The notes under the pieces: generated by a model
Told to the model about the DNA's origin: nothing
The model's input: only the letters and a program-made list of their open reading frames with translations
Database searches by the model: none
Shown: positions 33,610-58,148 of the stretch, in pieces
Position numbering within the stretch: position 1 is the stretch's first letter
How the letters are laid out: every line of letters begins with the position of its first letter
Assembly: GCA_963668175.1 (NCBI GenBank)
Contig: OY764159.1
Location: 1,344,001 to 1,408,000 of the forward strand
DNA: 64,000 nucleotides
Direction: 5' to 3'
DNA from: Syntrophales bacterium
GTDB lineage: Bacteria; Desulfobacterota; Syntrophia; Syntrophales; PHBD01
Translations under genes and position numbers: made by a program

Positions 33610-33692
33610 AGCTGACCGCGCAAATATTTTTAAAAAGCTCTACGCGATTTGTGATGCAGAGTCAATGGAAATCATAGTCCCCGGAGAAAGAC

Positions 33693-34040: not shown

Positions 34041-34239
34041 CGGTAAGCCTTCATTGCCATGATAAATTTCTGTGTTTATTAACTTTGTAGCATAAATGAC
34101 GGTTTCCGGCAAATGTTAAACGCACAATAATTCGTCCTTGTCCGTGTACGCTCAAGGCAGAGGCCGCCGAACCATCCCGTATCTCCGGAAGGCTGGAACA
34201 AGTGCATGCCGTGACCGTTCTGACCAGAGAATCCAGCCA

Positions 34240-34323
34240 TATGTCAAAAATGACATAAGCCTCAGAAATTATTACATTAATTTTCTTAATTTCCTTGACA
34301 GCACCCGGCATAAAATGTATATC
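34240..34323 (+). promoter_or_regulatory. ModE-type palindrome and fdnG2 promoter
   Basis: TATGTCA-AAAA-TGACATA (34240-34257); TTGACA (34295-34300)-N17-TATATC (34318-34323). Confidence 0.65.
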
Positions 34324-34493
34324 CGCAACGCTGAGGCGGCCTGTCGCTGCCGGTACTTACCTCCAATCCATCGATCCAGACAGTTGTTTTCCCCCCCGGC
34401 GATCCCGGTAAGCTTTTTTATGGCAAAGGCGGTCCGGTACGGGTGGAATAATGATTCATTATCATGAATAAAGATTGAAAGGAGCGCATGAAC

Positions 34494-37400
34494 ATGGATG
34501 TAACCAGAAGAGGTTTCTTGAAGCTCTCCGGGTCGGTTCTTGCGGCAAGCGGCGTCGGCGTCAGCCTGAAGCCCGTTTCCGCATACGCCGCCCCGCTGAA
34601 GGTCCAGTATGCTAAAGAAACCACAACGATTTGCCCCTATTGTTCGGTTGGATGCAGCATCATTGTTTCCGTGCGGAACGGTAAGGTGGTCAATACGGAA
34701 GGCGATCCTGACAGCCCGATCAACCAAGGATCGTTATGCACCAAAGGCGGCTCCATCTACCAGATGTCCGTCAACGAAAACCGGCTGGGCAAGCCCCTCT
34801 ACCGCGCCCCGTATGCCACCGAATGGAAAGAGGTGGACTGGGAGTTCGCCCTGGACAAGATTGCCAGGAATATCAAGACCAGCCGGGACAAGAGTTTCAA
34901 GTTCAAAAACGATAAGGGCGAAACCGTCAACCGCACGGAAGGCATCGCGTCCGTGGGAAGCGCCGCGATGGACCTGGAAGAATGCTTCGTCTACCAGAAA
35001 TTCTTAAGGGGGTTGGGTCTGGTCTATATCGAACACCAGGCCCGTATCTGACACAGCCCGACTGTACCGGCTCTGGCAGAGTCGTTCGGACGCGGCGCGA
35101 TGACGAATCACTGGAACGATTTCGCAAACAGTGATGTGATATTAATCATGGGCAGCAACCCTGCCTCCAACCATCCCGTTTCCTTCAAATGGATCACCAA
35201 GGCCGTGGAGAAGGGCGCCAAGATCATCTGCGTTGACCCCCGGTTTACGCAGTCTGCTGCCAAATCGCACGTTTACGCCCCTCTCCGCTCCGGGACGGAT
35301 ATCGCCTTCCTGGGCGGCATGATCAAGTATATCATCGACAATAAGCTCTACCAGGAAGAATACGTTAAACACTATACCAATGCATCTTTCCTGGTCAATC
35401 CGGCCTTCAAGCTTCCCGGAGACAACGACGGTGTCTTCTCGGGGCTCACGGGCGGGAAGTACGACAAGGCGACATGGTCGTACCAGACGGACGGCAAGGG
35501 CGTCATTAAGAAGGACCCGACGCTTACCGATCCGCACTGCGTTTTTCAGCTCCTGAAGAAACACTATTCCCGCTATACCCCGGAGATGGTCCACAAAATC
35601 ACCGGGACGCCGGCGGACAAACTGGTCGAAATTTACAAGCTCTACGGTTCGACGGGCAAGCCGGACAAGGCCGGCGTCGAGCTCTACGCCATGGGCTGGA
35701 CGCAGCATACCGTCGGGACGCAAATCATCCGGACGATGTGCATGACCCAGCTTCTCTTGGGCAACATGGGCGTTGCCGGCGGCGGCGTCGCGGCCATGCG
35801 GGGCGAGTCCAACGTCCAGGGATCGACCGACCACGGCCTACTGTTCCATATCTGGCCCGGTTACCTTGCGGCGCCGACGGCTTCGATGGGCACCCTGAAA
35901 GAGTACAACGAGAAGAAGACGCCGACGACGAAAGAGCCCAACAGCCTGAACTGGTGGAAGAACTATCCCAAATATTCGGCCAGTTATATGCGCGCCGTCT
36001 ACGGGAAGAATGCCACCCTCGAAGAGGCCTATGCCTATATGCCCAAGCTCGACGACGGGGCCAACTACTCGTGGCTTGTGCTCTTCGACCAGATGTACAA
36101 GGAAAAGTTCACCGGGTTCTTCGCCTGGGGCATGAACCCCGCGTGCAGCGGCGCCCATTCCAACAAGGTCCGGCAGGCCCTGGGCAAGCTGGACTGGATG
36201 GTCAACGTCAACCTCTTCGACAACGAGACCGGCTCCTTCTGGAGAGGTCCGGGCATGGACCCCACGAAGATCAAAACCGAAGTCTTCATGCTGCCCTGTG
36301 CCTCGTCCATCGAGAAGGAAGGCAGCCTCGCCAACAGCAGCCGCCTCATGCAATGGCGCTACAAGGCGGTCGAGCCGCCCGGAATCGCCCTTCCCGATGC
36401 GGATATCATGAGCGATCTCTATTTGCGGCTCAAGGAGCTCTACGAGAAGGAAGGCGGCCCCCTGAAAGAGGCCCTCACAAAGATGACCTGGCCCTACGGC
36501 AAAAAGGTCGGCGCCCACTACCATTTCGATCCCCATGCGGCGGCCAAGGAGATCAACGGGTTCTTCCTGGAGGACAAGAAAGTCGAGAATCCCACCAAGA
36601 AGGGCGATTTCAAGGAATTCAAGAAAGGCGATCCCGTTCCCACGTTCGCCTGGCTGCAGGATGACGGGTCAACCTCTTCCGGCTGCTGGGTCTATTGCGG
36701 TTCTTATGGAGCCACCAACATGGCCGCCCGGCGCGGAACGAAAGACGCCTCCGGCATCGGCCTCTATTCCGACTGGGCCTGGTCCTGGCCGGTGAACCGC
36801 CGCATCATCTATAACGGCGCCTCCGTCGATCCCAAGGGCAATCCTTGGGACCCCAAGCGGGCCGTCATCAAGTGGAACGGCGAGAAGTGGGTCGGCGACG
36901 TACCCGACGGAGCGGGAGATCCCGGTTCCGGCCGGCCGCCTTTCATCATGAAGCCGGACGGTGTGGGCAGCCTCTACGGCCCCGGCCTGGTGGACGGGCC
37001 TTTCCCCGAGCATTACGAGCCCCTGGAATGTCCGGTGGAGAAGAATTTCCTGTCTCCCCAGAAGCATAATCCGGTCATCAAGCGTTTCGACAAGCCGGGC
37101 GTGGGCTCCGACCTCGACGTTTACTCCAACGTGGCAAGCTGCGATCCCCGCTTCCCCATCGTCTGCTCGACCTACCGGATCAGCGAGCACTGGCAGACGG
37201 GTGTCCTGACCCGCTGGTGTCCGTGGCTGGCAGAAATGCAGCCGGAAATGTGGTGCGAGATGAGCCTGGAGCTGGCGACGGAGAAGGGCATCAAGAACGG
37301 CGAGAAGGTGGTCGTCAAATCGGCAAGAGGCGAAGTCGAAGCCGTGGCGATCGTCACGTCCCGCTTCAAGCCTTTCAACATCAGCGGCAACACGATCCAT

Positions 37401-37595
37401 GAAGTCGGCATCCCCTGGCATTTCGGCTGGATTACAACCATGGACAGGAAATACTCCCCGGGCGACAAGAAGGCCAAGGTGTTCACCAAGGGCGACGCGG
37501 CGAATCTCCTCGTCCCGACCATCGGCGACGCCAACACCATGATCCCGGAAAGCAAGGCTTTCATGGTCAATGTGATGAAGAAGGGGGTGAATTAA
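34494..37595 (+). CDS. fdnG: Formate dehydrogenase-N alpha subunit, selenocysteine-containing (intact)
   Basis: Tat TRRGFLK, CPYCSVGC; in-frame TGA 35049-35051 in EHQARI-U-HSPTVPALAESFGRGAMTNH joins ORFs 34488-35051 and 35100-37595; RGESNVQG. Confidence 0.93.
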
Positions 37596-37597
37596 TC

Positions 37598-38401
37598 ATG
37601 GCTGATATCGTGAAACTCATCGATGTATCGAAATGCACCGGATGCCGCGGCTGCCAGTTGGCCTGCAAGCAGTGGAACCAGATGCCGGCGCGGCAGACGA
37701 CGAATTATGGGACATACCAGAATCCGCCGGACCTGCAATGGAACACCTGGACGCTGATACGGTTCCAGGAGATTCCCGACAAGGACCGGGTCAAGTGGGT
37801 CTTCCGGAAGGACGGCTGCATGCACTGCACCGACGCCGCCTGCGTCAAGGTCTGTCCCAGCGGTGCCCTTTTTTATTCGGAACTGGGGACGGTCGGTCTC
37901 AACAAGGAACGCTGCATCGGCTGTAAGGAATGCGTCTCCGCCTGTCCCTTCGAGATCCCCAGGTACGACAATTTGACGGACAAGATCTACAAGTGCGATC
38001 TCTGCCTGTCGCGTCTCCAGAGCGATCTGACCCCGGCCTGCGTCAAGGCGTGCCCGACGGGTACCCTGACCTTCGGCGACAAGGAGAAGCTTCTGAAAAA
38101 GGCCTATGCCCGCGTAGAGGAACTGAAGAAGGAGGGCTTTGCCGACGCGAACGTATACGGGGACAAGTTCGTCAAGGGGACGCACGTGATGTACGTCCTG
38201 GACGAGAAGCCGTCCGTGTACGACAAGCTGCCGACGAGCCCGTCGGTGCCGCTGGCGGTCGTTCTCTGGAAGGACTTCCTGAAGCCGCTCAGCTTAATTG
38301 CGGCGGGCGGCGTGATAGCGGGCTCGTTCCTGCATTACATCATCCACGGGCCGAAACTGCCCGACGAAGAGCCCCGAGACAACGGCAAAGGAGGTGAATA
38401 G
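37598..38401 (+). CDS. fdnH: Formate dehydrogenase beta (Fe-S) subunit
   Basis: CTGCRGCQLACKQWN and three further Fe-S motifs; C-terminal TM. Confidence 0.93.
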   Translation: MADIVKLIDVSKCTGCRGCQLACKQWNQMPARQTTNYGTYQNPPDLQWNTWTLIRFQEIPDKDRVKWVFRKDGCMHCTDAACVKVCPSGALFYSELGTVGLNKERCIGCKECVSACPFEIPRYDNLTDKIYKCDLCLSRLQSDLTPACVKACPTGTLTFGDKEKLLKKAYARVEELKKEGFADANVYGDKFVKGTHVMYVLDEKPSVYDKLPTSPSVPLAVVLWKDFLKPLSLIAAGGVIAGSFLHYIIHGPKLPDEEPRDNGKGGE

Positions 38402-42132: not shown

Positions 42133-42972
42133 CTAAGCCTGCAGATAGCTGTGAAGGCCCGGGAGGTAGTTTACCCCCAGGTACGTAAAGAGGACGGACG
42201 CGAAGCCGATGACGGCCATGAGCGCCAGGCGTTTGCCGCGCCAGTCGCGGACGTACCGGGCGTGAAGCATGGCGGCGTATATGATCCAGGTAATGAGGGA
42301 CCAGGTCTCTTTCGGGTCCCAGCTCCAGTACGATCCCCAGGCGTAATGAGCCCAGATGGAACCCGTCATGATCCCGATCGTAAGAAATACAAAGCCAAGG
42401 GCGACGCTGCGATAGATCGTCTCGTCCAGGCTCTCCGAAGAGGGGAGGCGTTCGCCGATTCCCTCGTGACGGGCCGTGATCCAATCCCTGAGAAAATAGA
42501 TCAGGCCGCATCCGAAAGCGACGGTGAAGGAGGCATAGCCCAGAAAACAGGTAACGACGTGGCTCGTCAGCCAGTTGCTTTGCAAGGCCGGGATCAGGGG
42601 TTGAATCTGGCTGCTGACGCCGGGAGCGATCGAGGCGTAGGCCATGGCGAGAAAAGCCGCGGGCATCACGAAGGCGCCGATGGCGCGGGAGCCGGTTCGC
42701 CATTCGATGAAGAGGTTGATGGCGACAATCGCCCAGGCGAAGAAGACCATCGATTCGTACAGGTTCGACAGGGGGATATGCCCGATGCCGAGATCGTAGG
42801 AAGCCTTCCAGCGGAGGAGCAGGGCGCATGTTTCGGCGGCGATGCCTATCCATGCGGCGATGGAGCCGACGCGGCCCCATAATTCCTTTCCGAAAATCAT
42901 GCGGACAAGATAGGCGACAAAGGAAAAGAAGTAGATAAATGTCACCCAGCTTAAAATCGTCGTATGCGTCAT
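42133..42972 (-). CDS. resC: System II cytochrome c synthase WWD subunit (ResC/CcsA)
   Basis: HIPLSNLYES, PALQSNWLTSH, WAHYAWGSYWSWDPKETW, GLHSY. Confidence 0.95.
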   Translation of the reverse strand: MTHTTILSWVTFIYFFSFVAYLVRMIFGKELWGRVGSIAAWIGIAAETCALLLRWKASYDLGIGHIPLSNLYESMVFFAWAIVAINLFIEWRTGSRAIGAFVMPAAFLAMAYASIAPGVSSQIQPLIPALQSNWLTSHVVTCFLGYASFTVAFGCGLIYFLRDWITARHEGIGERLPSSESLDETIYRSVALGFVFLTIGIMTGSIWAHYAWGSYWSWDPKETWSLITWIIYAAMLHARYVRDWRGKRLALMAVIGFASVLFTYLGVNYLPGLHSYLQA

Positions 42973-44354
42973 GAAGCCAGTTCCTTTACAATTTGGGTAC
43001 GGATGCCGTCCATCAGCCGCTTCATGGATGCGGCGTTCCGGTTGCTGCGGCCGGCCACGGATATCCGCGTCTTTCCCTTAACGGTGTCGACGCGGACCCA
43101 GAAGCGATGGTGGAAGACGAAGTAGATGACGACAAGCCCCGCAATCATCAGGAACCCGCCGCCGGCGACGAGCGGCACGCCGGGGTCACGGGCTACCTGG
43201 AGGCCTGTATAGTATTGTTGTTCGACGCGGAGGAGGGCGAAGACATACGGCCTGAACAGGCCGGGGTTGAAGAGGGGGACTTCGTCCATGAGTCCCGGGT
43301 TCGATTCCTTGATCTCGTCGATATGCTGGAATATCCAGAACTGAACATCCGTTGCCGCCGACCGGACGCGGATTTTCGCCGCCGGTCCCATATTCATCAA
43401 GTTGTCTTCGACGCGGAGCACCTCGACCTTGGCGTCGCTTCCCGGGATGTCGAATACATCCCCGACGCTGATCATGAATCCTTTTTCCTTCAACGCTTTG
43501 CCGGTGACCGTGATGAAGGCGCGGCCGTCCGAAACGGAGCCGTAGCTTGCCTGGTAGAAACGGACGCCGCCAAACTCGAGGGGATGATTGACAAGCACCG
43601 GCCCCTGAAAGACCACCTTGCCGTCCTTAATGAAGCTGAGATCGGAGCGGTAGGTCTTCGGGGCGCCGTTTTCGTAGAAATCCACCATGAAGCGGTCGCA
43701 CCGGACGGAAAAGCCGAGGTCCCGTGTCCCCTTGCCGCCCCTGATCGAGGCAGCGTCGGCGGTTCCGCCCTCGACGATGTTCATGTAGGCGTTCAAGCCC
43801 CATAGGGAGCCGACGAGGGTCCCGGCGATCATAATGAGGATGCTCAAATGGACGGCGTAGACGCCAAAGAGGGAGAACCGCCCTTTGTCTCCGAAGAAGA
43901 CCGTCGTGCCTTCCTGGGAATCGTTCCTTTCGAGTCGGCGGAATTTGCCCCGCAGGAGCGCCTCGACGCGCTTCGCGACGTCTTCGCGCCCGGCGTCGGA
44001 GATCATGACCTGTTCGGGAGGCAGATTCTCGTAAAGCCCGGCCGGACCGGGAAAGGGGCTGGACGTGAATTGACGCAATGATGCGGGAAAACGCCTCCAT
44101 GAGCAGACGATAAGATTGACGGACAAGAGTCCCAGAAGGACGTAGAATACCAGGGAGTGGTAGATGTCGAAAAGCTGGAGATTGTGCAGGATGCCCACCG
44201 TGGTCGGCGACAGCTGCCGGGCGAATTCCGGCGCGTTTTCCTGCTGCGGGATGAAGGTCCCGACAATGGCCAGCAGGGCGATCAGGATCAGGAGGGTCAG
44301 GGTCAGTTTGAGGGAAGACAGGACCTTGAGAAGAGGGTTGTCGTTTTTCGGCAA
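42969..44354 (-). CDS. resB: System II cytochrome c biogenesis protein ResB
   Basis: GTFIPQ, DIYHS, YAVHLS, VNHPL..YQAS, GLQVARDPG. Confidence 0.92.
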   Translation of the reverse strand: MPKNDNPLLKVLSSLKLTLTLLILIALLAIVGTFIPQQENAPEFARQLSPTTVGILHNLQLFDIYHSLVFYVLLGLLSVNLIVCSWRRFPASLRQFTSSPFPGPAGLYENLPPEQVMISDAGREDVAKRVEALLRGKFRRLERNDSQEGTTVFFGDKGRFSLFGVYAVHLSILIMIAGTLVGSLWGLNAYMNIVEGGTADAASIRGGKGTRDLGFSVRCDRFMVDFYENGAPKTYRSDLSFIKDGKVVFQGPVLVNHPLEFGGVRFYQASYGSVSDGRAFITVTGKALKEKGFMISVGDVFDIPGSDAKVEVLRVEDNLMNMGPAAKIRVRSAATDVQFWIFQHIDEIKESNPGLMDEVPLFNPGLFRPYVFALLRVEQQYYTGLQVARDPGVPLVAGGGFLMIAGLVVIYFVFHHRFWVRVDTVKGKTRISVAGRSNRNAASMKRLMDGIRTQIVKELAS

Positions 44355-44535: not shown

Positions 44536-44566
44536 CTTGACAAGAACGGTCAAGTGGCGCTATTTT
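44536..44566 (+). promoter_or_regulatory. Candidate promoter/operator for the nrfD-like operon
   Basis: TTGACA (44537-44542)-N18-TATTTT, overlapped by palindrome CTTGAC-N7-GTCAAG (44536-44554). Confidence 0.45.
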
Positions 44567-44612
44567 ATTTGCGGGGGCAACGTATTTGTATGATGTGTGG
44601 AGATGTTTATTT

Positions 44613-45869
44613 ATGGCCTCTTTGGGTAAAGCTTGGCAAGCCGTCGATGTGGCGGCCGCATTAAGGCGCGTCCTATCCGGCGGACCCGTCTATCTCTTTT
44701 TTCTTTTCCTGTTTGTCGCCCTTCTGCTGACCGGTGCCGGGGCCGGAGTTCATGCCCTGTTCGTCGCCGGCAGTCGCCACGCCTACGGGACATACCGGCA
44801 GGTTCCCGTGGCGATGCTGATATCCAGTTACGCCTTCTTTGCCATCGCCTCGACAGGGATCTGCATCATATCGTCCATCGGGCACGTCTTCGGGGTCAGG
44901 GACCTCATGCCGCTGGCCAAGCGATGCGTGCTCCTTTCGATCTTCACCATCCTGTCGGGGTTTTTCGTGATCGGCCTGGAGTTGGAGAATCCGATCCGGA
45001 TGGCCATCTACAACGTCATCTCACCGAATTTATCATCGAACATCTGGTGGATGGGCACCCTGTACGGCTTTGAAGTTGTCTTCCTCACGGTGGAGTTTAT
45101 CTTCCTCATGAGCGGCGATCACCGGACGGCGTCGAAAGTCGGCCTGGTGGGAGTTATCTGCGGAGTCGCCGCCATCAGCAACCTGGGCGGCGTTTTTGCC
45201 ATGATGCACGGCCGCGAGTTTTGGTACGGCCCGTTTCTGCCCGTCTTTTTCATCGCCTCCGCCATGATGACCGGCTGCGCCTTCATCATGTTCTTCACGA
45301 TCATCGCCTCTTTCGTCGGACGAAAGAAGATTGAAGGGGCGACGGCCCGGTCCCTGGAAGTCGTTTCGAACCTCGCGATGCTGATGATTGCCGTGGCCCT
45401 GTTTTTCACGATCTGGCGGATGGTGTCGCTCAGCGTCGCGGGCGAACGGCAGCTCCTGGAGCTCGAAGCCATGGTCTCCGGGGCCTTTGCCTTCAATTTC
45501 TGGGGCCTGGAAATCGTCTGCGGCATCGTCATCCCTTTCATCCTTCTTTGGCTCGGAAAGGGCAGAAGCATGTGGCTCATGTTCACGGCGTCGGCCCTCG
45601 TCATATTTTCGGTCTTCTTCGTTCGTCTGGATCTCGTCGTCATCGGGCAGATCGTGCCGTACTATATGGATCTCGGTGTCGTCGAGTATTCCCGCCTCAA
45701 CGCCTATATGCCGACCTTGCACGAAGGCCTGGTGGTGCTGGGCGGGATAGGCTTCTGCATGTCGGCCTTCCTCTTTGCCGAGAGGCTCTTCGACGGCTAC
45801 CCCGACGACGGCCATGACGACGCCGTATCGCACGAGGCTGCCGGGGACCGGGCGGAGGTGGCATCATGA
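44613..45869 (+). CDS. NrfD/PsrC-family integral membrane quinol-interacting subunit
   Basis: About ten TM segments, ELENPIR, SPNLSSNIWWMGTLY, REFWYGP, YMPT. Confidence 0.85.
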   Translation: MASLGKAWQAVDVAAALRRVLSGGPVYLFFLFLFVALLLTGAGAGVHALFVAGSRHAYGTYRQVPVAMLISSYAFFAIASTGICIISSIGHVFGVRDLMPLAKRCVLLSIFTILSGFFVIGLELENPIRMAIYNVISPNLSSNIWWMGTLYGFEVVFLTVEFIFLMSGDHRTASKVGLVGVICGVAAISNLGGVFAMMHGREFWYGPFLPVFFIASAMMTGCAFIMFFTIIASFVGRKKIEGATARSLEVVSNLAMLMIAVALFFTIWRMVSLSVAGERQLLELEAMVSGAFAFNFWGLEIVCGIVIPFILLWLGKGRSMWLMFTASALVIFSVFFVRLDLVVIGQIVPYYMDLGVVEYSRLNAYMPTLHEGLVVLGGIGFCMSAFLFAERLFDGYPDDGHDDAVSHEAAGDRAEVAS

Positions 45870-46618
45870 CAACGAACGAAACCGAAAGCAAGAAGACTGC
45901 GCGGGAAGGGAAAGGCGATATCCAGGACAGGGAACGACGCGAGTTCCTGAAGATCGGCCTGGTGATCACGGGCGTTTTTGCCGGCGGCACGGTCCTCTCC
46001 CTCGCTTCCATAGCCGGAAAGGGATCGTCAGCTGCTTTAAGCAAGGAGCCGTATCCGTATAAGCCTCACTACGGCATGGTGATAAGGCAGGACCGCTGCA
46101 TCGACTGCGAGCGCTGCATGGAGGCCTGCGTTGCCACCAATCACGTGCCGTCCTACGGCTGGCGGACCAATATCCTGGCCCGGGAAGTGCCCGCTGCCGT
46201 CGGGCAGAACCGGGAGTTCATCCCCATCCTCTGCAACCAGTGCAACAACCCGCCCTGCGTCCGGACCTGCCCGACCACGGCGACTTATAAAGATAAGAAA
46301 ACCGGGATTGTCGTCATGGACATCAAGAAATGCATCGGCTGCAAGTCCTGCATGATGGCCTGTCCTTACGATATGCGCTACTACAACGAAGAGAGGCAGG
46401 CCATCGACAAGTGCGATTTCTGTTTCGAATCGAGACTCAAGAAGGGTGAGAAGACCACGGCCTGCGCCGAGGCCTGTCCGGCCGACGTGCGGGTGTTCGG
46501 CGATATCTCCGATCCGGGGAACCGCGCCTATCAACTGATTCATCAGGTTCAGAAAGCCGTCTGGGTTTTGCGGCCGGAGGTCGGCGCCCTGCCGAACATC
46601 TTCTACACGAAGGGTTAA
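45866..46618 (+). CDS. NrfC/PsrB-like 4x[4Fe-4S] protein with Tat motif
   Basis: RREFLK, CIDCERC, CNQCNNPPC, CIGCKSC, KCDFC..CAEACP. Confidence 0.9.
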   Translation: MTTNETESKKTAREGKGDIQDRERREFLKIGLVITGVFAGGTVLSLASIAGKGSSAALSKEPYPYKPHYGMVIRQDRCIDCERCMEACVATNHVPSYGWRTNILAREVPAAVGQNREFIPILCNQCNNPPCVRTCPTTATYKDKKTGIVVMDIKKCIGCKSCMMACPYDMRYYNEERQAIDKCDFCFESRLKKGEKTTACAEACPADVRVFGDISDPGNRAYQLIHQVQKAVWVLRPEVGALPNIFYTKG

Positions 46619-46628
46619 CGGAATTACG

Positions 46629-48950
46629 ATGAAAAAGCGTTTCGCCTTGATCACGATGATACTGGCCGTTCCGATGCTTGTGGCCGCCGGCGCCGCCACG
46701 GGAAGCTTTTCCGACGGGGGCGGCATCCTCTACACGGAGCCGGTGAAGGCGGTCCTCTTCAGCCATAAAGCCCACGTGGACGCGAAGGGGATTTCCTGCG
46801 ATCGCTGCCATTCTGGTCTCTTCGACATGGAAGCCCTGAAGGTCCAGCAGAAGAAGGATTTCGTCATGGAATCCCTCTACAAGGGCAAGTACTGCGGGGC
46901 CTGTCACAACGGCAAGGCGGCATTCGCCTCCGACACCCAGTGCGCTCGGTGCCATGTCCGTGCCGAGGGGATCAAGGCCGGATTCGTCAAGGGCAAAGAG
47001 AAAGCGGCTACGGTCTATAATACTTCGGTAACGATGGGCAAAGGGGAGAGCGCCGTCCGTTTCCGTCATGAAACGCACACCGCCAAGGCCGCATGCGCCG
47101 ACTGCCACCCCCGCCTCTTCAAAGCGAAAAAAGGCGCCGACCGCATTGCCATGGCCGATCACGGCAAAAACAAGTACTGCTTCTCGTGCCATGACGGCCG
47201 CAAGGCCTCTACGTGGAACGAATGCAGCACCTGCCATGCCAAGGTGCCGGTCCCTTCCCAGGCCGTTCTCTTCGGGAAGGGCGAGAAGGCGGTGCCCTTC
47301 AACCACAAGAGCCACACGGCGTCCCTGAAGTGCGCAAGCTGTCATACGAAACTATTCCCCTACAAGAAAACCGGGAAGAAGATCGCCTTCGCCGACCATG
47401 CCGCGAACAAGGACTGCTTCGCATGCCACGCCAGCTCGGGAAAAGGTTCGGCCTCTTACGACTGCAACCGCTGCCATGCGAAGACAAAGACATCCGCGGC
47501 TGCCGCGCCTGCTGCGGGGCCTGCCGGGCCCGCCCAGCCCCTTCTTTTCGGCCAGGGGGCGAAGGCTGTAGCCTTCAACCACAAGAGCCATTCGGGGGGC
47601 TCGATGCAGTGCGCAAGCTGCCATACGAAGCTCTTCCCCTACAAGCGGAGCGGCGAAAAGATCGCCTTCGCGGATCATGCCACGAACAAGAACTGCTTCG
47701 CGTGCCATGCCAGCTCGGGAAAAGGCTCGGCAACCTATACCTGCAATCTCTGCCATAAGAGTCAGGCCTCCGCCGCCCCGGCCGGGAACAAGGCCGGGAG
47801 CAAGAACGGCTGCCTCAACTGCCATGCCAATGACGCTGCCATGAAGGCGATGGTCAAACCGCCGGCGATCCCCACCGAAGGAGAGGGCTGAGCGGGGGCG
47901 CCTCCGCCAGTTAAGGCGGAGGAGTATTATAAAGGCTACCTTGTCGATCAGGGGCTGGTCGGAACGGACGTGCACCTCAGGATGGGGTGCAAGGCCTGCC
48001 ACGGCGGCGACGAAAACGGCGGATCGAAGGCCGCCGCCCACAAAGGCCTGATCGTCCGGCCCTCCGACGACCTCAAAGCCTGCGGGAACTGCCACAAGGC
48101 CATTGCCGACACATACGCCAAATCCCTCCATTACACGACCATCGGCCAGCGCGAGGGCGTCAAGGCCCGTTTCTCCAAGGCGGAACTGGCCATGTTCGAC
48201 CGGAAAGTATTCAACCAGTCCTGCCGCAGCTGCCACGCCTCCTGCGGCGACTGCCACGTTAAATCGCCTCCCGTCTCGGGTATTTCCCTGGGACTCATCG
48301 CCGGGCACAAGTTCGTCAAAAAGAACGAGGGGAAGACCTGCGCCTTCTGCCACGGAGGACGCGTCTATCCCGAATTCACCGGCGAATACGGCGGGTCCCC
48401 CGACGTCCACTACCAGAAGGGCATGATGTGCATGGACTGCCATAAGAAGTCGGAGGTCCACGGCGACGGCGCGATGGCGATGAACAAGCAGTCCGTCAAG
48501 GACCGGCCCCGGTGTGTAGCCTGCCATAAGCTCGACGGCAAGCAAATGGCCCATAACGTCCACCAGGACAAGGTGACCTGCCAGGGGTGCCACGTCGGCG
48601 GCGAGTACCGCCAATGCGAGAACTGTCACGTGGGTCCCGGCTCCATGTCGAAGCCGGGTTTCATCCTGGGACGGAATCCCCGGGACAACAAGACGTTGAC
48701 CACGCTCCGGTTGATCCCCACGGTCAGGGACACGTTCAAGCCGGCAGGCATCGCCATGAGCAGCTTCGATGCTGTGCCCAACTACTGGGATTCCCCCGTC
48801 CACAGCATCAAGAAGCGTACGGCACGGACCAGGTCTTGCGACAGCTGCCATGCGCAGCGGGAAGGGTTCCTGAAGGAGGAAACACTCATCAAGGACGGCT
48901 CCAAGGCCAACCGGAACCTGATCTATAACCTGAAACCCCTGGGTAAATAA
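46629..48950 (+). CDS. Predicted 773-aa multiheme c-type cytochrome selenoprotein (23 CXXCH, UGA at codon 421)
   Basis: Signal peptide; 13 CXXCH before and 10 after the in-frame TGA 47889-47891; 26 sense codons link to ORF 47970-48950; SECIS-like hairpin. If read-through is wrong, these are two cytochrome genes. Confidence 0.8.
47889..47922 (+). promoter_or_regulatory. UGA plus candidate SECIS hairpin
   Basis: TGA-GCGGGGGCG-CCTCCGCC-AGTTAA-GGCGGAGG: perfect 8-bp stem; loop begins 17 nt after the UGA with GU at loop positions 2-3. Confidence 0.75.
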
Positions 48951-49014
48951 TTGCCGGCCGGGAATTCAAACGGCGCGGCAGAACCTGCAAGAAACCAATC
49001 CAATGCCAGACCCG

Positions 49015-49045
49015 GCCCGGCAGGGCTATCCTGCCGGGCTTTATT
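49015..49045 (+). terminator. Intrinsic terminator after the cytochrome operon
   Basis: GCCCGGCAGG-GCTAT-CCTGCCGGGC-TTTATT. Confidence 0.7.
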
Positions 49046-49267
49046 GCTTGCCGTAGAGAGGGGCTATTGAGCCCTTCCTTGAAAATAGCCGGGAGATGGG
49101 TTACACTGCGCCGTCATCTTCGAAAGGCCTGTCTCTTTCATTCGGGCCTTTCCGGGGAAGGCGGCGGAGTTGTCCCGAGGGCCTGAAGAAGGCCGGCGTT
49201 CCGTCCGGAAGGCTGGCTCAACGCGGGCCCGCCGTGCGGAACACATTACAACGGCGGAGGATCGAAG

Positions 49268-51501: not shown

Positions 51502-53190
51502 TTGCCTGTGGACCGTGCCGGCTGCAAGAAATGGATCCTCTGGATCGTCCCTTTTCTCCTTTATGTGGGGCTGATTTATCATATGCCGCTCATGGAGCCG
51601 GACGAGGGGCGGTACAGCCTTATCCCGAGCACCATGAACCGGACGGGCGACTACGTCACCCCGCACCTGAAAGAGGTCGTCTATATCGAAAAGCCTCCGC
51701 TCGCCTATTGGGCGACTGCCGTAGCCTTCAAGCTGTTCGGGGAAAACGCCTTCTCTTCGCGTCTCTTTTCAGCCCTTTGCGCCTGGGGGTGCATCCTCCT
51801 GTGCTGGCGCATCGGCCGCTATTTCCATGACGAAAAGACGGGCCTATACGCCGCCGCCGTCCTCACGATGTGCCTCTTTCACCTGGCGATCGGCCGGATC
51901 AATATCCTCGATATGCCCCTGGCCCTGTTCGTCTGCCTCGCCGTCTGGTCAGGATTCCGCTATTTTTCCGATGAGGAACGGGACAGGAAGCACATATGGC
52001 TCTTTTATCTCTTCTGCGGTCTCGCGTTTCTCACGAAAGGCCTGATCGGGATCGTCTTCCCCGGGGCCATTCTCGTCATCTGGCTCCTCGTCTCGCGGCG
52101 CTGGCGGGACCCTTTTCGCCTCGTGTCCCCCGCAGGCATTGCGATTTTCCTTGCTGTGACCCTGCCGTGGCTCGTTCTCATCCAGAAGGCGAATCCGGAT
52201 TTCTTCTGGTTCTTCTTCATCCAGGAACACTTCCTCCGGTACACGACGACGATGCATCACCGGAACGAGACGGTCTTCTATTTCATCCCCGTGCTCTTGG
52301 CCGGTGTGATCCCCTGGCTCGGCTATTTTGCCCAGGCGGGGAGGGGCATCCGCGGACAGTGGAGGGTGTTGTTTGACAGTAAGGAAAAGAAGTTCCTTTT
52401 CACCTGGATCGCCTTCATTTTCCTCTTCTTTTCGGTATCCTCCTCGAAACTGATTCCGTATATCGCACCCCTCTTTGTCCCGCTGTCCGTCCTGATCGGT
52501 CACGTCTTCCGGATCTACGAGGAGCGTGTCGCCGCCGCAAAGGGGCCGACCGGCTGGAGGCCTGCGGATTATCTCCCCATCTTCGTTCAGACGGGGCTTT
52601 TCTATGTCGCTCTCGTTGCCCCCGTCTATATCGCCAAGCAGCGGGTCAGTCTGGAGGCCTGGTGGCCGTGGATCGTTGGCCCCGCGTTGGTGCTCGTTTT
52701 CTTCCTGTTCCTGCCGGAGATGATGAGGAGAAAATACCGCCGCGGCTGGTTCCTTGCGATCTATGCCGTGGCCGGGGTTTTCTTCGCGACGCTGACCTTT
52801 CCCGTCGCCCATTACGCGGCACCTTTCAAATCGGCCGCTCCCGTCGTCGCCGCCATGAAAATCCACATCCCGCCGGGAGAGGTCCCGTATCAGTTCAATA
52901 CGGATATTTACGGGATCGATTTTTACACGGGGATACGCACGCCCATCGTCGACGATATCGGCGAACTGGAGTTCGGCGTGGCGCGTATTCCGGCCGAGGA
53001 GAAGAAACGCTACTTCCTCATGTCGCCGGAATTTTTCCGTCTTTACCGGGAAGGACGGCCGATGTATGTCATCACCGAAGGGAAGGGGAATCTCCTGCGC
53101 CTGAAGCAGGAAGCCCCGGACATGAAAATCCTGTGGAACAACGGGAATTATCAGATCCTTCTTCTGCAGAAAGGCCAAAACGGAGGTTAG
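51502..53190 (+). CDS. arnT: ArnT-like glycosyltransferase family 39 (L-Ara4N transferase)
   Basis: EPDEGRY, EKPPLAYW, LTKG, SKLIPYI; many TM segments; first gene of the arn cluster. Confidence 0.85.
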   Translation: MPVDRAGCKKWILWIVPFLLYVGLIYHMPLMEPDEGRYSLIPSTMNRTGDYVTPHLKEVVYIEKPPLAYWATAVAFKLFGENAFSSRLFSALCAWGCILLCWRIGRYFHDEKTGLYAAAVLTMCLFHLAIGRINILDMPLALFVCLAVWSGFRYFSDEERDRKHIWLFYLFCGLAFLTKGLIGIVFPGAILVIWLLVSRRWRDPFRLVSPAGIAIFLAVTLPWLVLIQKANPDFFWFFFIQEHFLRYTTTMHHRNETVFYFIPVLLAGVIPWLGYFAQAGRGIRGQWRVLFDSKEKKFLFTWIAFIFLFFSVSSSKLIPYIAPLFVPLSVLIGHVFRIYEERVAAAKGPTGWRPADYLPIFVQTGLFYVALVAPVYIAKQRVSLEAWWPWIVGPALVLVFFLFLPEMMRRKYRRGWFLAIYAVAGVFFATLTFPVAHYAAPFKSAAPVVAAMKIHIPPGEVPYQFNTDIYGIDFYTGIRTPIVDDIGELEFGVARIPAEEKKRYFLMSPEFFRLYREGRPMYVITEGKGNLLRLKQEAPDMKILWNNGNYQILLLQKGQNGG

Positions 53191-53197
53191 GTGAACC

Positions 53198-54343
53198 ATG
53201 AAGATCAGAGAAGATTTCCTGCCGTTAAATAAACCCTCCATCGGGTCCGCCGAGATCGAGCGGGTCGTCGACTGCCTGAAATCGGGCTGGATTACCACGG
53301 GGCCCCACTGCCTCACCTTTGAGGAACGGTTCCGAAAGCTCACCGGGGCCGCTCACGCCATAACGCTCTCGTCGGCTACGGCGGGAATGCACCTTGCGCT
53401 CGCCGCCCTCGGGATCGGTCCGGGCGACGAAGTGATCACCCCGTCCATGACGTTCGCCTCGACGGTGAACATGATCGTCCTTCTCGGGGCCACGCCCGTC
53501 TTCGTCGACTGCGATTACGATACCTTGCTGATCGACGCCGGCCGGATCGAGGAGAAGATCACCGACAGGACGAAGGCCGTCATTCCGGTCCACTTCGCCG
53601 GGGCGCCCGCCGACATGGACCCGATCGTCGCCCTGGCGGGACGGCGCGGACTCGCTCTGATCGAAGACGCAGCCCATGCCGTCGGTACGTACTACAAGGG
53701 TGTCCATGCCGGCGGATTCGGCGGGATGGCGATATTCTCCTTCCACCCCATCAAAAATATCACGACGGGTGAGGGCGGCCTCGTGACATTGAACGGCGAC
53801 GATCTGAACCAGAAGATCAGGCTGCTTAGGTTCCACGGCATCGAGCGGGACGCCTGGAAGCGCTACGGAAAGGGAGGAAATCCCGAGTACGACATCCAGG
53901 AGGCGGGATACAAATACAATCTGACGGACATCCAGGCGACGCTGGGCATCGGGCAGCTCGATCGTCTGGACGAGTTCAACCGGCGCCGTGCCGAACTGAT
54001 CGGTCTTTACATGGAAGGATTGCAAGGTATCGACGGCATCGACCTGCCCGGCGTTCCTTCATATCCCCATGTCCACCCCTACAATCTGATGATCGTCAAG
54101 ACCCTGGCCATGCCGAGGGAAATCCTGATGGAGAAACTCTCCGAGTACAATATCGGCTACGGCTTCCACTTCCCGGCCTGTCACCTTCTGAGCCATATCA
54201 GGCGGCTTTTCGGCACGAAAGACGGCATGCTCCCCGAGACGGAGCGGGCGGCCGGGCGGATCCTGTCGCTTCCCCTCTTTCCCGATATGAAAGATAGCGA
54301 CGTATATTATGTTTGCGATGCTCTTCGGGATATATTAAGATGA
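53198..54343 (+). CDS. arnB: UDP-4-amino-4-deoxy-L-arabinose aminotransferase
   Basis: SGWITTGP, SATAGMH, EDAAHA, FSFHPIKNITTGEGG. Confidence 0.9.
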   Translation: MKIREDFLPLNKPSIGSAEIERVVDCLKSGWITTGPHCLTFEERFRKLTGAAHAITLSSATAGMHLALAALGIGPGDEVITPSMTFASTVNMIVLLGATPVFVDCDYDTLLIDAGRIEEKITDRTKAVIPVHFAGAPADMDPIVALAGRRGLALIEDAAHAVGTYYKGVHAGGFGGMAIFSFHPIKNITTGEGGLVTLNGDDLNQKIRLLRFHGIERDAWKRYGKGGNPEYDIQEAGYKYNLTDIQATLGIGQLDRLDEFNRRRAELIGLYMEGLQGIDGIDLPGVPSYPHVHPYNLMIVKTLAMPREILMEKLSEYNIGYGFHFPACHLLSHIRRLFGTKDGMLPETERAAGRILSLPLFPDMKDSDVYYVCDALRDILR

Positions 54344-54365
54344 CGCGAAATTTTGGGAGCAAGCC

Positions 54366-55334
54366 ATGGAATCGATGATTTCCGTCGTCATACCGGTTTA
54401 TAACGAGGAGAAAAACCTCGACGCCCTCATAGGGCGCCTGCGGCCCGTCATGGCGGGAATGAAGCGGCCCTATGAAATCATCCTGATCGACGACGGCAGC
54501 CGCGACCGTTCCCTGGAAATGCTCAAGGCGTTTGCCGGGAAACCCGACGTCCGCGTCGTCGAGCTGACCCGGAATTACGGGCAGCACGCGGCGATCCTGG
54601 CCGGTTTTTCCGTCGTCCGGGGGCAGATCGTCGTCACCATGGATGCGGACCTCCAGAACCCGCCGGAGGAGATTCCGCGCCTCGTTTCCGTCATGGAAGA
54701 GGGTGCCTACGACGTCGTCGGGACGATCCGCAAGGGACGTCAGGATTCTCTGTTCCGCATCCTGCCCTCTAAAATCGTCAATATGGTGGCGAGAAAGATC
54801 ACGGGAGTCGGGATGCGCGACTGGGGCTGCATGCTCCGGGCCTACCGCCTGCCGGTGGTCGAGCGGATGATCAACTGCCACGAGCATTCGACTTTCATTC
54901 CCGCCCTGGCGACGTTTTTCGGCAAGAGGGTGACGGAGATAGAGGTTGCCCACGAGGAGCGCTTCGGAGGGAAATCGAACTACCCGCTGCGAAAGCTGAT
55001 CAACCTCCAGTTCGACCTGGTGGCCTCCTTTTCGGAGTTGCCCATGAAGCTCCTCATGTACGGCGGCATCGCCATGGCCCTGGCCGGCGTCTGCTTCGGC
55101 ACCTTCCTGGCCGTGGCCCGTCTGGTCTACGGCGCCCTCTGGGCGGCGCAGGGTGTCTTCACGCTCTTTGCCATCCTCTTTCTCTTCGTGGGGATGCAGT
55201 TTTTCGCCCTGGGCGTCATCGGGGAGTACATCGGCCGGATCTACCGCGAAGTTCGGAAACGGCCCGAATACGTCATCGAGCGCGTTTATGAGTGTATCCA
55301 GGGGGATGCCGCCCCTCCCGGTGACAGTAAATGA
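54366..55334 (+). CDS. arnC: Undecaprenyl-phosphate Ara4FN transferase
   Basis: VIPVYNE, RNYGQHAAILAGF, DADLQNPPEEIP, GEYIGRIY. Confidence 0.9.
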   Translation: MESMISVVIPVYNEEKNLDALIGRLRPVMAGMKRPYEIILIDDGSRDRSLEMLKAFAGKPDVRVVELTRNYGQHAAILAGFSVVRGQIVVTMDADLQNPPEEIPRLVSVMEEGAYDVVGTIRKGRQDSLFRILPSKIVNMVARKITGVGMRDWGCMLRAYRLPVVERMINCHEHSTFIPALATFFGKRVTEIEVAHEERFGGKSNYPLRKLINLQFDLVASFSELPMKLLMYGGIAMALAGVCFGTFLAVARLVYGALWAAQGVFTLFAILFLFVGMQFFALGVIGEYIGRIYREVRKRPEYVIERVYECIQGDAAPPGDSK

Positions 55335-56254
55335 AAGCCGTCGTCTTCGCCTATCACGATATGGGCATTACGGGCCTCGAAGCGTTGCTTCGGGCCCGCT
55401 TCGATATCGCCGCCGTCTTTTCCCACGAGGATGCCCCCGGGGAAAATTGCTGGTTCGGCTCCGTTGCGGCCTGGGCCGAAGAGATGGATATCCCGGTCTT
55501 CTGCCCGGAGGACGTGAATACGGTCGAGTGGAAAGACAAGATCGCGGCCCTGAAGCCCGACGTCATCTTCTCGTTCTATTACCGCCGGATGATCGGACAG
55601 GACATCCTCGACATCGCGCCGGCGGGGGCGTACAACCTCCACGGTTCGCTCCTTCCCGCCTACCGGGGACGGGCGCCCGTCAACTGGGTCCTGGTCCGCG
55701 GAGAGAAAACAACCGGCGTGACGCTCCATCATATGGTCAAAAAGGCGGATGCGGGGGATATCGTGGGCCAACGGGTTGTGGACATCGCCTTCGAGGACAC
55801 GGCTGTTACACTATACGAAAAGATGTGTGAGGCCTCGCGGCGGCTGCTCGCGGAGCTTCTGCCCCTGATCGAATCGGGCCGGGCACCGCGGATGCCCCAG
55901 GACCATGCCGCCGCCACCTATTTCGGCCGGCGCCGGCCGGAAGACGGACGGATCGACTGGCACTGGCCAGCACTTCAAGTCTATAACCTCGTCCGGGCGG
56001 TGACCGATCCTTACCCCGGGGCCTTCACCGAGTTTCCCGGAGGCGAGCGGCTCTTCGTCTGGCGGGCGCTGCCGGAGGATGATGCCGGGCCGGGCAAACC
56101 GCCGGGGACCGTAACCGTGGAAGGGGACCGGGTTCTCATCGCCGCAGGCAAGGGATGTCTCCATCTTATGGAGGCGGGGCTTGAGTCCGGCCGGATGGAG
56201 GGCGACGGGCTTCTCGCGTATTTCAGGAATAAAGAAGGGATCATATTGATATGA
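55331..56254 (+). CDS. arnA: Stand-alone ArnA formyltransferase domain
   Basis: MKAVVFAYHDMG, NLHGSLLPAYRGRAPVNW, ADAGDI. Confidence 0.88.
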   Translation: MKAVVFAYHDMGITGLEALLRARFDIAAVFSHEDAPGENCWFGSVAAWAEEMDIPVFCPEDVNTVEWKDKIAALKPDVIFSFYYRRMIGQDILDIAPAGAYNLHGSLLPAYRGRAPVNWVLVRGEKTTGVTLHHMVKKADAGDIVGQRVVDIAFEDTAVTLYEKMCEASRRLLAELLPLIESGRAPRMPQDHAAATYFGRRRPEDGRIDWHWPALQVYNLVRAVTDPYPGAFTEFPGGERLFVWRALPEDDAGPGKPPGTVTVEGDRVLIAAGKGCLHLMEAGLESGRMEGDGLLAYFRNKEGIILI

Positions 56255-57288
56255 AGAAAATTCTCATTCTCGGTGTCAATGGTTTTATCGGCCATCACCT
56301 GACCAACAGCATTCTGGAAAAAACGGACTGGACGATTTACGGGATGGACCTGGCCGACGACCGTCTCGGGAAGGCGCTCAACAATCCCCGTTTCCACTTC
56401 CTGGAGGGGGATATCGCCATCAACAGGGAATGGATCGAATACCATGTCAAGAAATGCGACGTCGTCATGCCGCTCGTGGCTATCGCGACTCCGAAATTAT
56501 ACGTAGAAGATCCCATCGGCGTCTTCGAACTCGATTTCGAGATGAATCTCAACATCGTCAAACAGTGCGTCAAATACAAGAAAAGGGTTGTCTTTCCGTC
56601 CACCTCGGAGGTCTACGGGGCCTGTACCGATCCGGAGTTTACGGAGGACGAGAGCTACCTCACGGTGGGCCCGATCCAGAAGGAACGCTGGATCTATTCA
56701 TGCTGCAAACAGCTCCTCGACCGCGTGATCTACGGTTACGGGACGAGGGGACAGCTCGAATTCACTCTGTTTCGGCCCTTCAACTGGATCGGACCGCGGC
56801 TCGATTCCCTCTATGCGGCCAAGGAAGGAAGCTCCCGGGTCGTTACGCAGTTCATCGCGGAGCTGATGATGAAGAAGCCGATCACCCTCGTCGACGGCGG
56901 CCATCAGAAGCGCTGCTTCACTTACGTGGACGACGGCATCGCGGCTCTCGTCTCCATCCTGGAAAACAGGGACGACGTCTGCAGGAGCCAGATCATCAAT
57001 ATCGGCAATCCCCAAAACGAATGTTCCGTGAAGGAGCTTGCCCATCTCCTGAAGCAATTGTTCCAGGAGCATCCGGGCCATGTGAAAGACGGGGAGTATT
57101 CGGAGATCATCGAGATCCCGGCCGAGACCTTTTACGGCAAGGGATATCAGGATATCTACACGCGGAAGCCTAGCATCGAGAAGGCGCGGAAGCTCCTCGG
57201 CTGGGAGCCCAGAATCGGCCTTGTCGATTCCATGCGTATGACGCTCCATTCCTTTCTGGCGGAAAACGAGGATTCGTCCGGCCGCTGA
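56251..57288 (+). CDS. arnA: Stand-alone ArnA UDP-GlcA oxidase/decarboxylase domain
   Basis: ILGVNGFIG, EWIEYHVKKCD, STSEVYG, RPFNWIGPRLD. Confidence 0.9.
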   Translation: MKKILILGVNGFIGHHLTNSILEKTDWTIYGMDLADDRLGKALNNPRFHFLEGDIAINREWIEYHVKKCDVVMPLVAIATPKLYVEDPIGVFELDFEMNLNIVKQCVKYKKRVVFPSTSEVYGACTDPEFTEDESYLTVGPIQKERWIYSCCKQLLDRVIYGYGTRGQLEFTLFRPFNWIGPRLDSLYAAKEGSSRVVTQFIAELMMKKPITLVDGGHQKRCFTYVDDGIAALVSILENRDDVCRSQIINIGNPQNECSVKELAHLLKQLFQEHPGHVKDGEYSEIIEIPAETFYGKGYQDIYTRKPSIEKARKLLGWEPRIGLVDSMRMTLHSFLAENEDSSGR

Positions 57289-58148
57289 TGGAAAAGACAC
57301 TGGGTTTGAAAATCGACGTGGATACCTATGTCGGGATGAAGCAGGGAGTTCCCCGTCTGCTGGACATCCTGGGGGAGGCGGGCGTCAAAGGCACGTTCTT
57401 CCTCAGCATGGGGCCCGACGCTTCCGGCCGGGCCGTCTTCCAGATGCTGAAAAACCCGCGTTTTCTGAAGAAAATGATCCGCTCCAACGCACCGGGCCTT
57501 TACGGTTTCAAAACGGCCCTGTACGGGACGCTGCTTCCTTCGCCCATGATCGCCCTCTCTTTCCCGTCGCTCGTCTCCCGGATTATATCAACAGGGCACG
57601 AGGTCCAGTTCCATGCCTGGGACCACCGGCGCTGGCAGGACGATCTGCCCCGGCATTCGGAGGCCTGGGTCCGCGAGTGGTTCAAGAAAGGGTTTGCTGC
57701 CTTTGAAAAACTGACGGGCCGGCGGCCGGAAGCCTTCGGTGCCCCGGCCTGGCTCATCGACGACCGGGTCCTCGACGTCGTCCGTACTTATCCCCTTCGG
57801 TATTTGAGCTGCACACGGGCGAAAGAACCGTTTATCCATGAACGGGCGAATCTGCCCGAAATACCTTCCGATCTGCCGTGTTTCGAGGAGATCGGCGTGG
57901 AAGCGGGGTTCACGGCCATTCTTTCCCGCCTTACCGATGGCGGCCTCCACGTTCTTCCCGTCCATGCGGAGGTCGAGGGCGGCATCTGGGCGGATAAGTT
58001 CATCGAGCTCCTTGCCGCCGTCAAAAAAATGGGATATACGATGAAGACGTTGAGCGAGATCAAGGAAGAACTGCCTGTAGGTGAACTGACAATCCGGCCG
58101 TTCCGCCTGGAGCTGCTTCCCGGGCGGGCCGTTCCCTGCGCCGTCTGA
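57288..58148 (+). CDS. arnD: Ara4FN-undecaprenyl deformylase (polysaccharide deacetylase fold)
   Basis: LKIDVDT, SMGPD, HAWDH, HAEVEG. Confidence 0.85.
   Translation: MEKTLGLKIDVDTYVGMKQGVPRLLDILGEAGVKGTFFLSMGPDASGRAVFQMLKNPRFLKKMIRSNAPGLYGFKTALYGTLLPSPMIALSFPSLVSRIISTGHEVQFHAWDHRRWQDDLPRHSEAWVREWFKKGFAAFEKLTGRRPEAFGAPAWLIDDRVLDVVRTYPLRYLSCTRAKEPFIHERANLPEIPSDLPCFEEIGVEAGFTAILSRLTDGGLHVLPVHAEVEGGIWADKFIELLAAVKKMGYTMKTLSEIKEELPVGELTIRPFRLELLPGRAVPCAV

Follow-up and report, generated by a model that had tools for sequence, protein, structure and literature searches.

In a table of 119 prokaryotic selenoprotein families, the heme-related entries are ExtKL, GSU2204 and a GenBank-annotated protein of the OTR family (PMC13188914). 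ExtKL, also named MccSep (GSU2937-2936 of Geobacter sulfurreducens, PDB 9wt8-9wtc), is a five-heme polysulfide reductase with its selenocysteine (Sec) in a C-terminal immunoglobulin-like domain, beside a heme ligated by a cysteine, Cys239 (PMC13510729), and the catalytic site of OTR (SO4144 of Shewanella, PDB 1sp3, TIGR04315) comprises the second heme, ligated by Lys, and a Cys (10.1101/2023.04.20.537704; PMC9250108). We examined a 64,000-nucleotide stretch of the genome of a Syntrophales bacterium (the window; contig OY764159.1 of GCA_963668175.1, positions 1,344,001 to 1,408,000 of the forward strand), in which one gene (46629-48950, + strand) reads, across an in-frame UGA codon, as a 23-heme cytochrome. 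From the comparison of homologous sequences, this apparent stop is almost certainly a Sec codon, at which gene callers have cut the family in two. The family is a real multiheme selenoprotein family, uncatalogued in the selenoprotein catalogues that we searched.

The protein resembles MccSep/ExtKL in being a periplasmic multiheme c-type cytochrome with one Sec, specified by a UGA and a Sec insertion sequence (SECIS), and the MccSep gene too was historically seen as two open reading frames (ORFs). In contrast to MccSep, it has 11 hemes in a core plus 12 others, and its Sec lies near the N-terminus of the core, after the first heme. The MccSep/ExtKL model NF040886 gave no match to the protein at E 0.01 and none genome-wide at E 0.1, and the matches to the MccSep entries of the PDB were at the level of motifs only (E 0.002-0.009). 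Since it fails the MccSep model and differs in heme count, in Sec position and in having no free Cys, the protein is not a member of that family, which bears out what the original prediction, made from the DNA letters of the window, had held about the two. MccSep was not listed in fold searches with a model of the core, a result with which a shared fold is compatible. By analogy, the protein may work like MccSep, though it is not a member.

The UGA codon and its hairpin

The upstream ORF (46629-47891) has the C-terminal sequence PPAIPTEGEG, followed by the TGA (47889-47891), and the same frame is open onward to a TAA at 48950, just as the original prediction had joined the two ORFs. Reading through the UGA gives a product of 773 residues with Sec as U421 in the context GEG-U-AG. 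It has 23 CxxCH motifs, 13 before the UGA and 10 after it, in which all 46 of its Cys residues sit, leaving none free. By eye, a signal peptide (about residues 1-23, 46629-46697) can be recognised from a basic N-terminus, a hydrophobic stretch and an Ala-rich end. It is followed by four c7-type triheme domains, which make a wire of 12 hemes (46734-47759; four TIGR04257 matches; PDB 3ov0, E 4.4e-50), by heme 13 (C395-H399, 47811-47825) and, past the UGA, by the last ten hemes (47892-48947), a half which lacks a signal peptide of its own, as had been noticed before. No difference was seen in the contigs that cover the codon in two runs of one sample, which is possibly the source sample. We are very confident, on this and the following sequence evidence, that SelB would read the hairpin and place Sec at the UGA, yielding one exported 23-heme cytochrome in which the 12-heme c7 wire is joined to a core of 11 hemes that is OTR-like and carries Sec in a loop near its N-terminus. 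A single Sec-containing protein of 773 residues and 23 hemes had already been proposed and is now backed by the homologues, by covariation in the SECIS, by full-length homologues with Cys or another sense codon, and by the presence of selABCD; the protein would be exported and its hemes attached. Among the 120 best database proteins, 112 begin downstream of the Sec site, the annotation artefact that is to be expected for Sec.

A scan of GTDB genomes with the last 386 residues as the query returned 31 loci (56-70% identity), mostly in metagenome-assembled genomes of Syntrophales/Smithella, and all 31 carry TGA in the context GEG/AEG-TGA-AG. When 301 genomes of the phylum were searched with a profile, 45 had a match at E 1e-25, about 30 of them strong; the readable loci other than the query's own (28 of 28) have TGA, 18 of them belonging to the more distant GEG-TGA-GG type. 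Among the nearer relatives, 18 of 19 loci have TGA and one has CGA. After the removal of seven duplicates, and with 16 loci (15 distant ones and L049) taken from the reading of the phylum sample, the tally of non-redundant homologous loci was 70 TGA, one CGA and no TAA or TAG (n = 71); as the 71 loci are mutually related, these are not counts of independent events. The original prediction had asked whether homologues keep TGA at this position, and 70 of the 71 do. The CGA, at L082 in genome G335, is the sole sense codon seen at the level of DNA; one stem pair is broken there and the hairpin still folds. This allele probably reflects a recent loss.

We also aligned 44 full-length homologous proteins, nine of which have Cys at the Sec column (for example GEGCGG in P0167, GGGCGG in P0154 and ESCGG in P0148), the residue that the earlier reading had proposed to look for there, and four of which have Cys one column off. 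Because these sense-codon homologues are full-length, they argue for one polypeptide and for a site of Sec/Cys type. The Trp found at this column in P0006, P0091 and P0164 may be encoded by TGG or may stem from a gene call that was recoded. A near paralogous subfamily (P0400, P0402-P0404 and P0268) has Pro at the Sec column, in a loop of G-Pro-AG type, and keeps all the hemes.

The hairpin CCTCCGCC-AGTTAA-GGCGGAGG (47901-47922) has its loop 17 nucleotides past the UGA, with G and U as loop positions 2 and 3. The bacterial SECIS model has a loop of 3-9 nucleotides, a stem of 4-16 bp, a G in the first two loop positions, a spacing of 16-37 nucleotides and an energy of at most -7.5 kcal/mol (PMC13188914), and the window hairpin, with its six-nucleotide loop AGUUAA, a spacing of 17 and -18.4 kcal/mol, fits this model in every respect, as the original prediction had claimed. 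The prediction had also called the hairpin perfect. It is fully paired in the window, but the two outer pairs of its 8-bp stem are unconserved in relatives; the conserved stem of the near relatives is 6 bp long, and half of them have a central mismatch.

An open in-frame continuation is frequent in this genome: of 3557 open frames with 300 codons or more, 246 have one, and in 99 of these the stop is TGA. We therefore dropped it as evidence for Sec by itself. The local fold of 62 nucleotides is likewise unexceptional (z -1.7, with 11 of 200 shuffles as good). The case for Sec rests on conservation and on the position of the hairpin. Of the 902 TGA codons at which long frames of this genome terminate, only 16 are followed by a G-loop hairpin at or below -7.5 kcal/mol with a spacing of 16-19, and only four reach -15 kcal/mol or lower, where the window site has -18.4.

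The six core pairs hardly vary within the near clade, where no covariation was found. In the distant clade (18 sequences), 91.7% of the cells of the 8-bp stem are paired and 13 compensatory cells are spread over four pairs; none of 500 shuffles equalled this clade in pairing, in compensatory-cell count or in covariation score, and slid controls gave far lower values. Of the 67 four-fold-degenerate columns of the core, a single one has an invariant third base, and it is located in the stem (CCT in 31/31), while none of 60 such columns outside the hairpin region is at least 95% invariant. A G-loop hairpin at a spacing of 16-19 follows the TGA in every one of the 55 contexts scanned, and in 46 of them it is at or below -7.5 kcal/mol. 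These alignments indicate that the hairpin is under selection. As a separate observation, contigs of other organisms (runs X1, X2 and X5) match the DNA of the gene mainly around the UGA and hairpin (window 47876-47920) and at a few heme motifs.

The source genome, which is complete and in one contig, has tRNA-Sec (selC), as well as selA, selB and selD over their cut-offs, so that the full set for which a check had been proposed is present. In the window, each of the two fdhA (formate dehydrogenase) genes has a TGA in frame, as had been seen before, one at 35049-35051 (+ strand) and the other where the ORF 21863-22450 (- strand) ends in ARV-TGA. The co-occurrence of selA was uninformative as a test, since selA is found in 279 of the 301 sampled genomes. 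Two of 29 TGA-carrying genomes (G115 and G276, both drafts) gave no selA match, and both have selB, selD and tRNA-Sec. G335, the CGA carrier, has selA, selB and selD, and no tRNA-Sec over the cut-off was found among the 150 of its 271 candidates that were scored.

The 11-heme core and its gene neighbourhood

At sixteen of the 31 GTDB loci, the product is just a signal peptide with one heme, then the Sec loop, then ten hemes; the other 15 add two c7 domains, which makes 17 hemes, and the window adds four, which makes 23. As 16 loci consist of a signal peptide and the core only, the conserved unit is an 11-heme core and the architecture is 12 + 11. The four c7 domains and the total of 23 hemes of the original prediction therefore stand, but not its division into 13 + 10, since heme 13 is heme 1 of the core and is present in 59 of 59 Sec-type sequences. 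Nor does U421 lie in a flexible linker between two modules, where it had been placed, but in the N-terminal loop of the core. The 23-heme form is the longest form of the family that was seen, and it is not unique to this genome, as three database proteins (P0280-P0282, 409-419 residues) have 13 hemes and end in EGEG. A word-based search, which can miss relatives, gave no record with c7 domains and core together among nine matches of 425-1353 residues. At one of the loci with two c7 domains (L031:5998-6891), the core frame ends after seven downstream hemes and resumes in another frame, either by a frameshift or by an assembly error. Four c7 repeats hold the 12 N-terminal hemes, like those of the GSU1996-type dodecaheme nanowire cytochromes (3ov0, TIGR04257), whereas here this wire is fused in frame to the Sec core; free 12-heme forms stand beside NrfD and NrfC genes, as at L020.

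An AlphaFold2 model of the 11-heme core, with Cys substituted for Sec, had a predicted local distance difference test (pLDDT) score of 90.6 and a predicted template modelling score (pTM) of 0.87. Its best structural match among 48,161 chains (VIA) was OTR (1sp3; Z 10.1, root-mean-square deviation 4.1 Å over 259 residues), with the next at Z 4.4. Foldseek gave nothing at E 0.001, its top match being 1sp3 at 5e-3, and a PDB sequence search with the single core gave nothing meaningful. In the local alignments, the heme motifs of OTR can be paired in order with those of the core, including the catalytic second heme, which a profile alignment places on C532-H536 (48222-48236), a candidate active-site heme. 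However, the identity is 18%, and the core has three more hemes and an N-terminal extension with heme 1 and Sec, which lies outside the aligned range (model 59-386). It also lacks a conserved Lys or a free Cys in the second-heme segment, and has instead R514, conserved in 57 of the 59 Sec-type sequences, which precedes C532-H536. TIGR04315 (cut-off 375 bits) did not match the protein, and matched two of 40 homologues weakly (best E 2.6e-7). Nine non-motif His residues are conserved in the 59 Sec-type sequences for the 11 core hemes, which leaves two hemes without a His as the distal ligand.

Two genes precede the cytochrome gene on the + strand. The first encodes a membrane subunit of the NrfD/PsrC family (44586-45869; PF03916, E 4e-20), a putative quinol module, and the second an NrfC/PsrB/DsrO-like 4Fe-4S subunit (45866-46618; Pfam Fer4_11) with, by eye, a twin-arginine-like motif; its matches to the NCBIfam DsrO, TtrB and NrfC models were all below cut-off. 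The operon consists of these three genes, none of which has a molybdopterin domain, and is bounded by two patterns, a sigma-70-like promoter consensus upstream of the NrfD-type gene (44537-44566, +) and an intrinsic-terminator-like hairpin past the cytochrome gene (49014-49050, +), where the relatives have their rhodanese gene. Divergent from it is resB/ccsB for system II cytochrome c maturation (42133-44354, - strand; PF05140 and PF01578, with TIGR03144 over its cut-off), an arrangement which recurs in related loci. PsrABC of Wolinella and the Ttr/Nrf-type complexes use an NrfD/PsrC anchor and a PsrB/NrfC-like Fe-S subunit, and Wolinella has Sud as its periplasmic rhodanese. The present system is like them in these parts, but its operon has no molybdopterin catalytic subunit, and a multiheme selenoprotein stands in its place.

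In the c7-fused loci, NrfC lies immediately upstream in 15 of 15 and NrfD in 13, the other two being cut by contig ends. Separate NrfD, NrfC and c7 wire genes are found near two of the 16 core-only loci: at L020, a free 12-heme c7 protein comes after NrfD and NrfC genes, beside an unfused core, and L017 has the same order, cut by a contig end. Because a free wire and NrfD/NrfC adjoin the unfused core at these loci, the comparison suggests that the 23-heme fusion joined two partners of one pathway. Six of the 16 core-only loci have instead a multiheme/cytochrome-b membrane protein (Pfam support).

A tandem rhodanese with a signal peptide and a catalytic-type Cys adjoins the core in 30 of the 31 loci, and at L024 the sole rhodanese is of a second type and lies two genes further along. 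Within 1.5-kb flanks of the 28 loci of the phylum sample, a rhodanese match was found in 14, one of them marginal, and fusions of the core with rhodanese exist (P0401, P0407 and P0158). The MccSep operon likewise has a rhodanese-like gene (ExtH, by its NCBIfam name). In the genome studied here, an orthologue of the rhodanese (60-65% identity, with a signal peptide and a CDSG motif) is encoded elsewhere, at C1:3708539-3709426 (L065:6522-7496, minus strand). Six loci (L004, L010, L013, L015, L024 and L030) share a layout of Sec core, rhodanese (absent in L024), 8-heme cytochrome, second rhodanese and multiheme/cytochrome-b membrane protein. A flavoprotein of the FAD_binding_2 (flavocytochrome) type, with more than 20 matches genome-wide, also adjoins the Sec gene in several loci.

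Proposed function and competing readings

We give about an even chance to the proposal, drawn from gene context and from analogy, that the protein would act as a quinol-linked periplasmic polysulfide/persulfide reductase without molybdenum. The NrfD-type membrane subunit would oxidise quinol and hand the electrons to the NrfC-type Fe-S subunit, from which they would reach the 11-heme core along the c7 wire. There, the selenol would attack sulfane sulfur, either of polysulfide or of a persulfide brought by the periplasmic tandem rhodanese, and the adduct would be reduced at the OTR-equivalent heme C532-H536, with the release of sulfide. Such a mode would be like that of MccSep, or of Psr with a sulfur carrier, the Sec-multiheme protein replacing the molybdoenzyme. 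The link to sulfur comes from the rhodanese beside nearly all of the GTDB cores, from the core-rhodanese fusions and from the orthologue kept in this genome, and the link to quinol from NrfC/NrfD upstream of the c7-fused loci and from the NrfD-NrfC-wire genes near core-only loci. That the reaction would be the reduction of sulfur is suggested by the fold of a reductase of sulfur and nitrogen oxyanions, by the two hemes without His and by the precedent of MccSep. The family is widespread and probably turns over sulfur compounds.

A more tentative proposal, which we consider doubtful, is that U421 could itself be the axial ligand (His/Sec) of a c-type heme, for which the heme equivalent to the catalytic one of OTR is the likeliest. 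The protein would then be a sulfur reductase of syntrophs that is driven by quinol, is fused to its wire and does without molybdenum. As two core hemes have no His partner and no Cys is free, Sec is a candidate for a direct ligand. In the literature examined, a selenolate-ligated heme is described for engineered P450s only (PMC11273360).

Several observations weigh against the reading as a sulfur reductase. The rhodanese is unlinked from the cytochrome gene in the window genome, and at eight of the 16 core-only loci the flank shows no membrane module. The reactions served by NrfD/NrfC modules are many and run in either direction, and Syntrophales and Smithella, to which the named relatives mostly belong, are syntrophs that are not known for sulfur respiration. 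In the core model, the Sec loop has a pLDDT of 62. Neither Cys nor Sec is found at the site in 31 of the 44 full-length homologues (W, R, A, S, Y, H and others), so the fold is kept without a thiol or selenol, which counts against an essential role throughout the family. Finally, the mechanism of MccSep needs a heme-ligating Cys (PMC13510729), and the present protein has no free one.

A selenoprotein that serves electron transfer only, as a periplasmic wire or hub, for example between species, with Sec as a heme ligand or redox tuner, is an unlikely alternative to the sulfur reductase. It would accord with the relation of the 12-heme c7 wire to GSU1996-type nanowire cytochromes, with the many homologues that keep every heme around a non-thiol residue and with the two hemes lacking a His partner, and multiheme cytochromes of Smithellaceae have been discussed as markers of direct interspecies electron transfer (PMC13685792). 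However, it leaves the rhodanese in 30 of the 31 loci and the rhodanese fusions unexplained, the OTR-like core is an enzyme fold, and catalogued selenoproteins are mostly redox enzymes or have redox motifs (PMC13188914).

Sulfur chemistry in reverse is rather improbable, whether sulfide or persulfide would be oxidised to feed the quinone pool or sulfur would shuttle reversibly between partners in syntrophy. Gene context gives no direction, and the hydrogenase and the two formate dehydrogenases of the window, which have cytochrome b subunits, could run either way; the c7-type hemes, however, are low-potential, and the nearest functional precedents (MccSep, OTR and Psr-type subunits) are reductases. 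The His/Cys hemes of TsdA and SoxAX do catalyse sulfur oxidation (PMC13510729), which would speak for the oxidative direction.

The chances are poor that the substrate is selenite, tellurite or another chalcogen oxyanion, in detoxification or selenium handling with the rhodanese as carrier. MccSep does reduce selenite besides polysulfide (PMC13510729), and weak matches, below cut-off, to the ExtM/N/O cytochromes of the selenite/tellurite operon would point the same way. These matches, however, cover heme motifs only and reach at most 38 bits against cut-offs of 200-800, and a quinol module, a wire and maturation genes would fit energy metabolism better than trace detoxification. It is very improbable that the protein is an OTR-like tetrathionate/nitrite reductase with the oxyanion at an open heme and Sec in the role of the active-site Cys of OTR. 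The fold match to 1sp3, the aligned catalytic heme motif and the invariant-like R514 ahead of it would speak for such an enzyme, and an OTR-family selenoprotein is listed as GenBank-annotated (PMC13188914); against it stand the missing TIGR04315 match, the segment between the two hemes, in which neither the Lys nor the Cys of OTR has a conserved counterpart, and the rhodanese, which favours sulfane sulfur. A UGA that is a true stop, leaving two separate proteins or a broken gene, can hardly be right: database annotation does split the gene and homologues often have an ATG shortly past the hairpin, but none of the 71 loci has TAA or TAG, sense-codon homologues read straight through, the downstream part has no signal peptide, the SECIS covaries, and in 16 of 31 loci the upstream product would be a mere signal peptide and one heme.

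Occurrence in databases, significance and surrounding genes

The models of the ExtKL, GSU2204 and OTR-family entries do not match here, and NF049953 (hypothetical protein DG, a GUxG selenoprotein) gave no match at the locus. NCBIfam gave weak, motif-level matches only for 40 family members, and the ESM Atlas only clusters with generic automatic names. The words 'cytochrome' and 'heme' are absent from the main texts on BSepDB, SelCysML and deep-Sep (PMC13326102, PMC13745706, PMC12013277), whose supplements, outside the search, could list members. A literature search, whose coverage excluded most subscription papers, turned up no paper that describes this selenoprotein.

A survey of Desulfuromonadia cytochromes has, as its third largest cluster, an 11-heme periplasmic one labelled 'No ID', with WP_092345198.1 of Desulfuromusa kysingii as its representative (PMC11492766). 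By eye, this protein and WP_129125251.1 of the same cluster are close to the homologue P0215 (E 5.7e-29), and WP_072909939.1 looks N-truncated, starting just past the Sec site. The representative has Tyr-His in the position of the Sec loop, and the main text of the survey makes no mention of selenocysteine. The cluster is a loose one: most of the members viewed are either unrelated or part of a subfamily that is more distant (PMC11492766). In this distant Desulfuromonadia subfamily (WP_010943759.1 and WP_006002125.1), a conserved extra Cys (GPxNCG) is seen by eye immediately ahead of the heme pair that matches the OTR catalytic heme; the Sec family is without it (PMC11492766).

The family adds a heme-selenium enzyme architecture, apart from MccSep and on the OTR fold, that is present in about 30 of the 301 sampled genomes of the phylum and has been hidden because gene callers split it at the UGA. 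If the reduction of sulfane sulfur is true, syntrophic Syntrophales and Smithella would have an unrecognised quinol-linked electron sink in sulfur, which would matter for cryptic sulfur cycling and for the demand for selenium in digesters and sediments. The family's forms with 11, 17 and 23 hemes, together with the unfused NrfD-NrfC-wire layout, are a case in which gene fusion reveals an electron path, and since Cys and non-thiol variants occur in nature, the role of Sec can be tested directly. If His/Sec ligation is true, this would be a natural selenolate-ligated heme, while the Sec of MccSep is merely beside a Cys-ligated heme (PMC13510729).

Elsewhere in the window, 8-28 kb from the operon, two FdnGHI-type formate dehydrogenases and a NiFe hydrogenase with hyp genes are encoded (18559-38401); it is possible that these enzymes are partners of the system via the quinone pool. 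The Pfam domains of a further region (51502-58148) fit a cluster of arn type, a name which would imply aminoarabinose modification of lipid A.

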